Below, piece after piece: positions 1 through 8,435 of a stretch of 64,000 bases of DNA (position 1 is its first letter; every line of letters begins with the position of its first letter). The stretch lies in contig CAWGHO010000003.1 of the NCBI GenBank assembly GCA_963822445.1, forward strand, positions 1,152,001 to 1,216,000, in the 5' to 3' direction. A program made the position numbers and the translations under genes. The notes below the pieces were generated by a model. That model worked only from the letters and a program-made list of their open reading frames with translations, did not search any database and had not been told where the DNA came from. The DNA is from an uncultured Acidobacteriota bacterium (lineage in GTDB: Bacteria > Acidobacteriota > Thermoanaerobaculia > Gp7-AA8).

Positions 1-956
1 GGCATGCGGGAGTGGCGGTAATACTCGAAAGCAAGGGCGACCTTGCCGGAGCGCTGCGGCATTATGAGCAGGCTCGCGAGGTCAAACACGAGCTCGCCCG
101 TCGCGATCCTGCCGATCTGGAAGCGCAGGCGGAGTTGGCGCGCGCTTACAACAAGGTGGCCGTGCTGTTGTACAAGAAGGGTGATCTCCGCGGCGCCCTC
201 GACTACTCGCAGCGCGAGGTCGAGATTTACCGCCGGCTTGTCTCGCAGGAACCGAAACAGGCCATCTGGAAGCGCCGCCTGTCGAACAGCGTCACCTATC
301 TGGCGCGGACGCTCAGCCATACCGGAAACAGCGACGCGGCGCGGGCGATGTTCGAGGAAGCGCTGACGATGAATCGCGCCATCGCGGCGCTCGATCCGGC
401 CAATGTCGAATGGCAGCGCAACGTCGCCATGTCCCTTCGCTGGCTCGCGAGCGAACACTCAGACCGCGGCGATCGCTCCGAGGCCCTGAAACTGTGCCGC
501 GAAGCGGTTGAGATCATCGTTGACGTCGTCAAGCGCGACCCCTCGCGCACTGGATTCGTCATCGATTCGATGAATGTGAAGACTGACTATGCGCGGCTGC
601 TTGCGGAGCAAGGCGATCCGCGCGGAATGGCGATGCTTCGGGAAGTTCTGACGGGGCTGGAGGCGGTTGCGAAAGACCGCATGACGCGTTACCAGGCCGG
701 CCGGTGCGCGGTCATTCTCGGCGAGCTGTCATTGAAGAAAGATCGTGCCGCCGCGGCGGCCGCATTCGATCGCGCAGCCCGCCACATGGAACCGATCGTG
801 GAACAGACGACGCATCCGGACGAGATGGCCATTTGGACCCGGCTTTTGATCCATCAAAAGCGCTTGCCTGAAGCTCGCGCGAGCCTCGCTCGCTTGCGCG
901 GTACCGGCTACGCCACCACTCAGCTTGAACAGCTCTGCTCCGAGCACGGATGCTAG
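1..956 (+). CDS. TPR-repeat protein, 5'-truncated at the window edge; probably the C-terminal part of a Ser/Thr kinase-TPR protein
   Basis: TPR-like helical repeats (ALRHYEQAREVK, DPANVEWQRNVA). Colinear with the TPR half of 5503..7959: KHELARRDPADLEAQAELARAYNKVA vs [39 protein letters not shown] vs [13 protein letters not shown]. The kinase part is not visible. Confidence 0.75.
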   Translation, partial: HAGVAVILESKGDLAGALRHYEQAREVKHELARRDPADLEAQAELARAYNKVAVLLYKKGDLRGALDYSQREVEIYRRLVSQEPKQAIWKRRLSNSVTYLARTLSHTGNSDAARAMFEEALTMNRAIAALDPANVEWQRNVAMSLRWLASEHSDRGDRSEALKLCREAVEIIVDVVKRDPSRTGFVIDSMNVKTDYARLLAEQGDPRGMAMLREVLTGLEAVAKDRMTRYQAGRCAVILGELSLKKDRAAAAAAFDRAARHMEPIVEQTTHPDEMAIWTRLLIHQKRLPEARASLARLRGTGYATTQLEQLCSEHGC

Positions 957-983
957 CAGGGAGAGAAAATTAGGGAGGAAATC

Positions 984-1454
984 ATGTCCAACGGAGTCAA
1001 CACATTTCCGGTCAACGTCTCCTGCAATTCAGGCAGTACCAGCGCAAATCCACCGAAGTTACCCGTGAAGCGTGCCCAGGGCACCGCGATCACGATCAAC
1101 TGGAACGCTCAGGGCGGCAGCACGTTCCCGGAGTCAGGGTTCTTCAGTTGGAAGAACAGCACCAACCCCGGCATCCTGCCGACGCGCAGCAGCGACGGGA
1201 CGACATTGACGCTGAACTACAACATCCCCGGGTCCGTGAACTGGGCGTACAACATCACCTTGTCGGGATGCGCAACCCAGGATCCCGAAATCGATAATGA
1301 GGTGCCTCCTGGTGAGGAAGAAGTGATCCCGCCGAAAAACCCGCCCGGACAGCAGGGACCCGGCGGCCCGACGGGTGGTGGAAACGTCGGCGGTGGTCAG
1401 CCCGGCGGCGGCCAGACCGGTGGCAGTCAGAACGACCCGGCCAAATCTGATTGA
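984..1454 (+). CDS. Small beta-rich protein with DPEIDN motif (DP-EP/DUF1888-like) and Pro/Gly/Gln low-complexity tail
   Basis: Strong SD (gggagga) before the ATG. About 105-aa core ending AYNITL...DPEIDN, then a P/G/Q tail. Paralog at 7956..8399. Family call is by motif resemblance. Confidence 0.7.
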   Translation: MSNGVNTFPVNVSCNSGSTSANPPKLPVKRAQGTAITINWNAQGGSTFPESGFFSWKNSTNPGILPTRSSDGTTLTLNYNIPGSVNWAYNITLSGCATQDPEIDNEVPPGEEEVIPPKNPPGQQGPGGPTGGGNVGGGQPGGGQTGGSQNDPAKSD

Positions 1455-2251
1455 TGCGTGATCCTCGGGCCGGCGGAAACGCCGGCCCTGTTTCGTTTGT
1501 GGAGCGCGGTCTCGAAGAGTGCTTCCGCACGTTCGCCGCGCTTCCGGGTGCCGTCGTCGAGGATCGCGACGATGTTCTGGCCGTGCGTACCGATCTTCCG
1601 CTCACGTTTCTGAACGGCATCTCGCGCACGGCATTCGCCGCTGACGCGAACGAGCGCGTTCGCGAGACGGCGGCTTGGTTTCGCGATCGTGGAACGCCGT
1701 TTCGATGGTGGCTCACGCCGTCGGTCGAGCCGCCGGATCTCATTCGCGTGCTCGCTGCGAATGGGTTGCGGCATTTTTATTACGCGACGGGGATGGCAGC
1801 GGACATCAGCGACGGTGGTCCAGTTCGGGAAGTAACTGGTCTTTCCATCGTTCGCGTGAAGGACGGACGAACGCTGTCGACGTGGGTCGATGTATTCGCG
1901 GAAGTCTTCTCGTTGTCGGAGAAGGCGAAAGGCGTCTGGTACGACGTCTACTCGCGCCTCGACACCTGGCGTCACTTCCTTGCCATGCTCGACGGCAGGC
2001 CCGTGGCCACGACTTCGCTCTGTCTTGGCGGTGAGGTCGGAGGCATCTTCCACGTGGGGACGTTGCCCGAAGCGCGCGGGCGGGGAGTGGGTGCGGCGGT
2101 CACCGCCGCGGCGATGCGCGAAGCAGCGGACACGGGATGCACGGTCGCGGCGCTGCAGTCATCGGAGATGGCGGTGAACGTCTACCGTTCGATCGGCTTC
2201 GAAGTCTGCTGCGAGCTCGAGTTGTACGACTGGAAGCCCGAGTACGACTGA
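1454..2251 (+). CDS. GNAT family N-acetyltransferase
   Basis: Acetyl-CoA motif VGTLPEARGRGVG and VYRSIGF; TGATG coupling to the upstream stop. Confidence 0.9.
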   Translation: MRDPRAGGNAGPVSFVERGLEECFRTFAALPGAVVEDRDDVLAVRTDLPLTFLNGISRTAFAADANERVRETAAWFRDRGTPFRWWLTPSVEPPDLIRVLAANGLRHFYYATGMAADISDGGPVREVTGLSIVRVKDGRTLSTWVDVFAEVFSLSEKAKGVWYDVYSRLDTWRHFLAMLDGRPVATTSLCLGGEVGGIFHVGTLPEARGRGVGAAVTAAAMREAADTGCTVAALQSSEMAVNVYRSIGFEVCCELELYDWKPEYD

Positions 2252-7959: not shown

Positions 7960-8399
7960 CTTACCAGATCAATGTTTATCTGAACACCACCGCCAACCCA
8001 CCGGTGACCTGTTCCCCGGACACGATGGCGGTCTCCTTCGGAACGCAGGACGTTCAGTGGAGCATGGCCGCCGGCCAGAACGGGTCGATCTCCGCGATCA
8101 CCTGGGGCAGCGGCGGCGATCCGTTTTCCGTCGACCCCAGCGCCTCGAACAACTGGACCGGTACCGACGACAACTCCAACACTTCGGGCGCCGGCCAGAT
8201 GTACTCGTACACGATCTCAGTGACCTACAACAACACGACGTATTCGTCGGATCCCGAGATCGAAAACGACCCCCAGCCTCCGCCTCCGCCGCCGGCGCCA
8301 GGACCAGAGATGGTCGAGCCGCCGACGGCAGCAAACGTTCGGCGACACCGCCGCCGCCACAGCATCAGTCATGCAGCGAAGAGCGACGGCAACAGCTAA
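7956..8399 (+). CDS. Small beta-rich protein with DPEIEN motif (DP-EP/DUF1888-like) and Pro-rich/basic tail
   Basis: ATGA overlap with the kinase stop; SD gagagga; YSYTISV...SDPEIEND then PQPPPPPP. Paralog of 984..1454. Confidence 0.75.
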   Translation: MTYQINVYLNTTANPPVTCSPDTMAVSFGTQDVQWSMAAGQNGSISAITWGSGGDPFSVDPSASNNWTGTDDNSNTSGAGQMYSYTISVTYNNTTYSSDPEIENDPQPPPPPPAPGPEMVEPPTAANVRRHRRRHSISHAAKSDGNS

Positions 8400-8408
8400 C
8401 CTAAACCC

Positions 8409-8435
8409 GAACGGGCCGGCCATGCCGGCCCGTTC
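8409..8435 (+). terminator. GC-rich hairpin after the kinase/DP-EP operon (no U-tract)
   Basis: gaacgggccggc-cat-gccggcccgttc, perfect 12-bp stem starting 10 nt after the stop. Confidence 0.55.

Follow-up and report, generated by a model that had tools for sequence, protein, structure and literature searches.

A two-gene cassette of a transmembrane TPR receptor and a small DP-EP-related protein in an uncultured Acidobacteriota bacterium and in other phyla

Why should genes for receptor-like kinases with tetratricopeptide repeats (TPR) be followed, again and again, by a gene for a small protein that carries an Asp-Pro motif towards its C-terminus? The question is raised by a stretch of 64,000 nucleotides from an uncultured Acidobacteriota bacterium (Thermoanaerobaculia, Gp7-AA8; genome of about 6.0 Mb), G000:C3:1152001-1216000, hereafter the window. 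An array of four paralogous genes, each encoding a Ser/Thr kinase, a transmembrane (TM) segment and TPRs, ends at the start of the window. We call these receptors K1 to K4 and the small partners S2 to S4, with S3 being protein P0001, S4 protein P0002 and K4 protein P0003. The order of the array is K1, K2-S2, K3-S3, then GNAT and GT2 genes over about 4 kb, and K4-S4, so that a leaderless small gene follows 3 of the 4 array kinases at a gap of -4 to +27 nt. K1 (G000:C3:1144960-1147401) has no small gene downstream and is spaced 69 nt from K2 (G000:C3:1147470-1149941), both lying just before K3. A first-pass annotation of the window had described a duplicated module, and both of its copies are present, with the four open reading frames (ORFs) and the two DPEIxN motifs exactly where it had placed them. 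The number of modules is three, since S2, a 136-aa ORF whose ATG overlaps the stop codon of K2 and whose C-terminal end reads IDPEVENEPQP, follows K2 upstream of the window. The kinase domain of the first gene, placed outside the window by the same annotation, is indeed there, and the K3 gene starts at G000:C3:1150452.

We looked at how the small proteins are related. Compared pairwise, S3 and S4 are 25% identical with a BLASTP E-value of 0.032, and in phmmer searches of the 62,310 ORFs of the genome neither retrieved the other at E<=10. At the level of profiles they are homologous, the P0001-type (19 rows) and P0002-type (24 rows) alignments matching over 100 columns with an hhalign probability of 99.2% (E 2.3e-19); S2 likewise matched the 150-row alignment of the whole family (hhalign 95.7%, E 9.5e-9). 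Close relatives are few, six for P0001 and one for P0002, and the family itself is large: a 32-sequence profile run against 1.84 billion proteins collected at least 608 cluster representatives at E<=1e-3, 88 of them at E<=1e-10, and nearly all members have 105-160 residues. In the 150-row alignment the Asp, the Pro and one Tyr are present in every row, the Asn in 145 and the Trp in 142, giving the family motif DP[ED][IV]xNxPP. Among the residues that the first-pass annotation saw as common to both proteins, W40/W35, Y89/Y85, the Asp-Pro and the Asn are aligned and invariant or nearly so; the V-x-C does not occupy an aligned position in the hhalign comparison. When the 6.0-Mb genome is translated in all six frames, DPEI.N turns up four times, twice at the S3 and S4 sites. 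Neither of the two proteins has an N-terminal hydrophobic stretch, which bears out the earlier remark that they lack a signal peptide. From the Asp to the C-terminus family members have 7-69 residues (median 16.5, commonest 10-12 in 150 rows); as the usual tail after the Asp is short, the long tails of S3 and S4, with 46-49 extra residues, are add-ons.

Some features of the family are confined to subgroups. P0001 carries Cys14 in the first strand (window 1023-1025) and Cys96 four residues before the Asp-Pro (1269-1271); the pair is kept in 6 of the 7 sequences of the close set formed by P0001 and its six relatives, each Cys occurs in 12 of 150 rows, and together they could be a disulfide or a metal site. 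Another subgroup (MSHTIEVGFANG...) has neither the Asp-Pro nor a TPR-receptor neighbour (L022 2017-2337; L026 4684-5007, the same as L014). We left out of the cassette counts four loci with secreted-looking ORFs and no TPR neighbour (L036, L037, L040, L041); three of these ORFs (L036, L037, L040) are distant relatives that have hydrophobic, signal-peptide-like N-termini and ends such as IDPRVRV or IDPIIEVPKP, and may be a secreted branch of the fold. Profile matches to long Ig/PKD-repeat proteins (P0076, P0084, P0112, P0114, P0142, P0144) were considered fold-level noise and kept out of alignment A3, and an Ig-repeat ORF in L038 was not taken as a family member.

The receptors are also paralogous. 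The kinase domain of K3 is 60% identical to that of K4, and the TPR region encoded by the 5'-open ORF 3-956 of the window is 36% identical to the TPR region of K4 (E 2e-23). The kinase domain of K4 has 65 genomic matches at E<=1e-10 in tblastn, and of these only the four array loci match the K4 TPR domain as well. Pfam recognised a Pkinase domain in K4 (PF00069, E 3.1e-41) plus C-terminal TPRs; its catalytic motifs K40, H129-N136 (HRDLKPxN), D149-G151 (DFG) and S211-E213 (SPE) are invariant in 23 sequences, and judged from sequence K3 and K4 are Hanks-type Ser/Thr kinases. Matches of the kinase to PD-T4-6 and mad6 were set aside as generic kinase-domain matches. Each receptor has one hydrophobic segment, with a Kyte-Doolittle mean of 1.2-2.0 over 17 residues, preceded by an Arg-rich stretch. 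We also noticed a C-x4-C at the very C-terminus of three receptors (CSEHGC, CRESGC, CAENGC), namely K3 (window 946-956), K1 in L047 and the kinase of L064; K2 and K4 lack it.

The pairing of the two genes was followed through the genus. With a narrow profile of the small proteins (A1), 20 of 34 further genomes of the genus gave matches at E<=0.01, and none of the 26 searched from other genera of the class did. The genus loci contain 30 distinct small genes, 24 of which lie directly downstream of, and on the same strand as, a P0003-like TPR gene; the other six are second in a tandem (three; L011, L012, L025), motif-less and without such a neighbour (two) or near a contig end (one; L020). Of 23 pairs, 22 are spaced at -4 to +42 nt and have a GGAGG-like site. 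Seen from the receptor side, the TPR module is present in all 35 genomes of the genus, with 74 matches, and among the best 30 kinase-TPR loci, one per genome, a small gene supported by a hidden Markov model (HMM) stands just downstream in 27, there is none in two (L082, L091) and one (L080) stops at a contig edge. This amounts to 27 of 29 assessable kinases, or 25 of 27 when the unpublished genomes G002 and G025 (L076, L078) are left aside. In addition, two metagenome records of identical sequence show the same receptor-partner pair, and a wider profile detected the family at E<=1e-4 in 11 of 300 other genomes of the phylum, with a TPR gene upstream in six loci.

The TM-TPR module itself extends beyond kinases. 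Homologues of residues 330-818 of K4 include proteins with an N-terminal TIR domain or with a CadC-like winged helix-turn-helix (wHTH; NCBIfam E 1.7e-17 in the STAND relative) followed by an nSTAND1 NTPase, and a hydrophobic helix with a conserved juxtamembrane segment before the TPRs is common to the kinase (K1-K4), TIR and STAND versions. The TIR and wHTH-nSTAND1 outputs were seen in Verrucomicrobiota and Pseudomonadota records (P0178, P0190, P0193, P0199 and others; L048-L063). Given a single TM segment and its flanking charges, with a cytoplasmic kinase, TIR or NTPase domain, the TPRs are predicted to lie outside the membrane, in the periplasm. The TM-TPR module looks like a sensor with interchangeable outputs.

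Partners were found behind these other outputs as well. Among 11 loci of Verrucomicrobiota and Pseudomonadota retrieved with one TIR protein, four have a partner directly downstream at HMM E<=1e-6 (L048, L050, L051 and L056, the last with two); ORFs with similar-looking ends but no HMM score are present in L049, L053 and L054, and a second TPR locus of one TIR-branch genome (L061) has a partner too. The single wHTH-STAND locus (L063) has one at E 1e-3, with the C-terminal end CDPQMTNVPTGGIG (CDPQMTNVP). Because partners also follow the TIR and wHTH-STAND versions, the small protein goes with the TPR module and not with the kinase. The first-pass annotation had asked for recurrent adjacency to TPR receptors, including wHTH-TPR genes, and this was found both in the kinases of the genus and in the one wHTH-STAND-TM-TPR gene; the receptor-partner cassette is real and widespread. 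Tandem small genes after one receptor occur in L011, L012, L025, L048 and L056.

Could the two genes be neighbours by a conserved accident, without any functional link? Synteny within one genus could suffice for this, and the flanking GT2 and radical-SAM genes are syntenic as well. However, the pair alone recurs in Verrucomicrobiota and Pseudomonadota amid unrelated neighbours, which vary from one locus to the next, and stop and start codons overlap in several lineages, so that we regard an accident as very improbable. The exchange of outputs bears on another explanation, in which the output domain would have the small protein as its cytoplasmic substrate or adaptor, for instance as a target of phosphorylation by the kinase. 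The protein is small, Ser/Thr-rich and predicted to be cytoplasmic, and the catalytic motifs of the kinase are all invariant, as this idea would have it. Yet the same partner family stands after TIR and wHTH-STAND receptors, and no Ser/Thr column is conserved above 68% in the 150 family sequences. The role of kinase substrate, offered by the first-pass annotation beside that of ligand, therefore fits poorly, and a substrate or adaptor of the output domain seems to us a long shot.

Receptor and partner are also inherited together. Over their last 300 residues, 23 receptors show distances that correlate with those among their partners (Mantel r 0.46), a value reached in 0 of 2000 permutations, and the maximum-likelihood trees of the receptors and of the partners share the well-supported clades {L023,L024}, {L007,L008,L010}, {L017-L019}, {L001,L006} and {S2,L027}. 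At least seven receptor-partner lineages exist in the genus. The three modules of the array have orthologues in other species and are thus old lineages rather than recent copies. The idea of a diversifying pair is borne out to this extent, that the kinase-TPR gene and the small gene have been inherited and have diversified as a unit.

What kind of protein is the partner? On the strength of its motif it had been assigned to the DP-EP/DUF1888 family (PF08985), typified by SO1698 of Shewanella oneidensis (PDB 3n55, mutants 3njf-3njn). Searches with P0001 and P0002 returned no PF08985 match at E<=1, and NCBIfam and PADLOC also gave nothing for the small proteins; 32 family members had no relevant Pfam match at E<=10, a scan of the genome with PF08985 did not match the small genes, and the single protein P0147 found nothing relevant among PDB sequences. 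Three of 147 further relatives gave full-length PF08985 matches of 17.2-22.5 bits, below the gathering threshold of 25 bits. No match exceeded the PF08985 cut-off in 301 Acidobacteriota genomes or in 401 sampled from the class of G347; as the control genomes gave none either, absence is not demonstrated by these zeros. The one PF08985-like signal in the genome (20.6 bits, sub-threshold) lies at G000:C1:1136999-1137241 (L028), inside a frame of 2213 aa unrelated to the cassettes.

From end to end, positions 5-112 of the family profile align to residues 15-127 of the SO1698 chain 3njh_A, and the printed alignment places ssDPeieNdpp on SPDPQIINRPQ of SO1698. This site corresponds to S114, P115, D116, P117 and Q118 of SO1698, residues that, to go by the PDB titles, were changed in the deposited mutants; the titles call the protein an 'aspartic peptidase'. 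The cut in SO1698 reportedly falls between D116 and P117. By profile alignment the Asp-Pro near the C-terminus of the family lies within this cleavage-site motif, and one partner from elsewhere in the phylum ends SDPQIINKGDD, almost the wording of SO1698. The N-terminal alignment to SO1698 is too weak (E 0.46) to place Y26 and D37, which were also probed in that protein. A Lys different from Lys98 of SO1698 (K57 of P0001) is present in 85 of 150 family rows.

The P0002 model is confident (pLDDT 89) and has the SO1698-type beta-sandwich fold. In it Asp99-Pro100 sits in the turn between strands 94-98 and 101-104, and the residues after the Asp-Pro form an integral strand before a low-confidence tail. 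With this model Foldseek gave six matches at E<=1e-3, all of them SO1698 or MakC/MakD, and the fold comparison with DP-EP and PixA that the first-pass annotation had suggested returned SO1698, MakD and PixA as the best folds. The weaker P0001 model had SO1698 first by both Foldseek and VIA-align. Overall, SO1698 was at or near the top in four structure searches, with 9-20% identity in the structural alignments. Neighbours in the ESM Atlas that belong to clusters with 20% PF08985-bearing members (4 of 30 for P0002, 10 of 30 named for P0001) are leads only. DP-EP and PixA are placed in the same Pfam clan, CU_oxidase, in a preprint (bioRxiv 10.1101/2021.05.03.442362). These results support, at superfamily level, the view that the small proteins are a large unrecognised sister branch of DP-EP within the PixA/MakD/cupredoxin-like fold group. 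The kinship with DP-EP goes beyond the motif, through profile, fold, ESM Atlas neighbours and sub-threshold hits; the Pfam threshold itself was not reached.

The comparison with SO1698 can be detailed further. Both are single-domain beta sandwiches, of about 110-125 residues, with an Asp-Pro that in most members of the family stands some ten residues before the C-terminus, and both have the motif DPxIxNxP (DPQIINRP in SO1698, DP[ED][IV]xNxP in the family). They differ in that the family stays below the Pfam cut-off, does not keep Lys98, has 46-49 extra tail residues in the window copies and shares a conserved cassette with TM-TPR receptors. PMC11655445 describes SO1698 as an endopeptidase that cuts itself at low pH. 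A full-text literature search, with most subscription journals outside its reach, retrieved no paper linking SO1698 or the DP-EP family to TPR receptors.

SO1698 is also reportedly self-assembling, and the small protein might on this model be a co-expressed self-assembling or inclusion-type product (PixA-like or SO1698-like) rather than a partner, its synthesis accompanying that of the receptor or being controlled by it. Low-complexity tails are common in matrix and assembly proteins. Such a product, however, would have no need to remain with a single sensor module through three phyla and three types of output, or to split into module-specific lineages along with the receptor, and we think it quite unlikely.

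The reading that we prefer draws on the homology, the fold, the equivalence of the motif, the operon-like coupling, the pairing across phyla, the swapping of outputs and the inheritance as a unit, and we give it about an even chance of being correct. The locus is an array of two-gene cassettes, each encoding a single-pass receptor and a small leaderless beta-sandwich protein, probably translated from the same message; the small protein would be the dedicated partner of the TM-TPR module rather than of the kinase domain. The small protein would cleave itself at the Asp-Pro, a reaction probably favoured by acid, to give a core with a non-covalently held C-terminal strand-and-tail peptide. The TPRs would then read the state of the partner (intact, cleaved or peptide-released) and in this way set the attached output, be it kinase, TIR or wHTH-STAND. 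In this proposal we infer the cleavage, the physical binding and its surface, the direction of signalling and the meeting of the two proteins across the membrane.

Several points weigh against this proposal. The TPRs are predicted to be periplasmic and the partner is leaderless, which would put the two on opposite sides of the membrane, and MakC and MakD, the latter the nearest fold relative, are cytosolic according to PMC11484084. The idea of a simple ligand, as the first-pass annotation had it, is for the same reason only partly supported. The Asp is replaced in two TIR-branch partners (GGPTIRNN in L051, NNPAIKNE in L061), so cleavage cannot be universal. Since PEIEN is an integral strand of the confident P0002 model, conservation of PEIxN is explained by the fold without any receptor. 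The agreement between trees would be seen with linked genes in any case, and is no proof of co-evolution. As for the kinship with SO1698, the PF08985 cut-off was reached by none of the 32 and 147 members tested, the E-values of the profile against SO1698 (0.17 and 0.46) are not significant alone, and Lys98 of SO1698, mutated in 3njg, aligns to Met/Asn in the two window proteins, in an alignment that is itself weak (E 0.46).

The compartment problem leaves three ways round: the partner could be released by lysis or by another route, it could act before export, or the helix might not span the membrane. A different role would be that of a cytosolic accessory or biogenesis factor, as has been suggested for MakC/MakD, and not of a signal read by the TPRs; it would act on the receptor, or on how the operon is expressed, while insertion into the membrane is still ahead or under way. 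The small proteins are leaderless, tight translational coupling suits a stoichiometric helper, and MakC and MakD are reported, in PMC11484084, to be cytosolic and to affect how the products of neighbouring genes are expressed and secreted. On the other hand, likeness of fold proves no function, the supposed client is encoded upstream of the small gene, and a helper of this kind leaves unexplained both the highly variable tails and an Asp-Pro kept in 150 of 150 members at a known self-cleavage position. Overall, an accessory factor appears unlikely.

If release by lysis is taken further, the cassette would become a channel for kin lysis or damage: a cytoplasmic pro-signal, freed only by bursting sister cells, would cut itself at the Asp-Pro in acid soil water and shed its C-terminal strand-and-tail peptide, which would be read by the periplasmic TPRs of surviving neighbours. 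We hold this extension to be improbable. Were it true, the paralogous pairs would be separate channels (at least seven lineages in the genus) and the receptors with a TIR output would correspond, in bacteria, to a Toll-type receptor whose ligand is a processed protein.

Known systems offer partial parallels to the receptor with a dedicated partner. In ToxR-ToxS, in CadC-type membrane wHTH sensors and in Rap-Phr/RRNPP systems, a sensor gene is followed by a small gene, often overlapping it, whose product, by being processed or simply present, sets the activity of the sensor, and in RRNPP proteins the TPR is the peptide-reading domain. The pro-peptides of Phr type carry a signal peptide, undergo cleavage by proteases and are read by cytoplasmic RRNPP receptors, while ToxS is membrane-anchored. 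Here, by contrast, the partner is folded, leaderless and, to judge from its motif, probably self-cutting, and the TPRs are predicted to be outside the membrane. The cassette does not belong with RRNPP/Rap-Phr, as its TPRs stand behind a TM helix and its small protein is folded with no hydrophobic N-terminus, and the analogy is one of layout only. PknB-like receptor kinases, Hanks-type enzymes with extracytoplasmic sensor domains, share the kinase, the single TM helix and a C-terminal repeat sensor; they differ from the receptors described here, in which the sensor is a TPR solenoid common to TIR and STAND proteins and comes with a dedicated small partner gene. MakD/MakC (mak operon of Vibrio cholerae; PDB 6tct, 8rqy) and PixA/AidA (PF12306; 4lzk, 4pib) are also small, leaderless and encoded beside larger partners. 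No sequence-level match to them was seen, however, and MakD/MakC belong to the operon of a pore-forming toxin and PixA/AidA form inclusions, neither occurring with TM-TPR receptors.

The cassette may therefore be an undescribed sensor-plus-partner signalling unit. For the DP-EP/DUF1888 family the literature searched gave a structure and a self-cleavage chemistry, and no biological role was found in it. A large sister branch (at least 608 representatives, almost none recognised by Pfam) is now tied to one type of transmembrane TPR sensor, and the tie persists across kinase, TIR and STAND-wHTH outputs, which provides a testable cellular context for the family. This points to a modular type of receptor, present in Acidobacteriota, Verrucomicrobiota and Pseudomonadota, that may take the cleavage state of its own partner as input; if the link between receptor and partner is physical, the receptor would be gated by a pH-sensitive, self-processing protein. 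The features of the two cassettes in the window are collected in the table.

Table. Features of the K3-S3 and K4-S4 cassettes, in window coordinates.
Feature	Position	Strand	Basis
3' part (TPR domain) of K3, 5'-open ORF	1..956 (frame from 3)	+	ORF list, Pfam, upstream reading
S3 (P0001), 156 aa; beta-sandwich core about 1-110 and 46-residue Gly/Pro/Gln-rich tail; leaderless	984..1454	+	ORF, profile, structure
DPEIDN motif of S3; candidate bond for self-cleavage at Asp100-Pro101	1281..1298	+	motif, profile alignment
G+C-rich hairpin then T-rich run, directly 3' of the S3 stop; resembles a terminator closing the K3-S3 unit	1467..1488	+	
K4 (P0003), 818 aa; kinase of Hanks type (1-300), followed by TM helix, conserved juxtamembrane helix and TPR solenoid	5503..7959	+	
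Predicted single TM segment of K4, about residues 309-325; RR before, WRY after	6427..6477	+	hydropathy
S4 (P0002), 147 aa; ATGA overlap with the K4 stop; core 1-110, then poly-Pro and basic tail	7956..8399	+	
DPEIEN motif of S4; Asp99-Pro100	8250..8267	+	motif, profile alignment, model
14-pair hairpin (11 G-C) just 3' of the S4 stop; likely end of the K4-S4 unit	8407..8437	.	

The surroundings of the cassettes were also inspected. A gene for a TonB-dependent receptor-like protein (CarboxypepD_reg plus Plug; L047 313-3897, G000:C3:1141312-1144896) lies directly upstream of the array; it is not conserved beside other cassettes, and the idea of a peptide importer was dropped. In the window the cassettes are embedded (1451-5392, 8667-12823) among genes for GNAT, GT2, GT2, a 307-aa ORF, radical-SAM, GT4, radical-SAM/SPASM and S1/P1-nuclease proteins. 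Two GT2 genes and a radical-SAM gene also lie beside the cassette in L001, and two GT2 genes beside that of L027.

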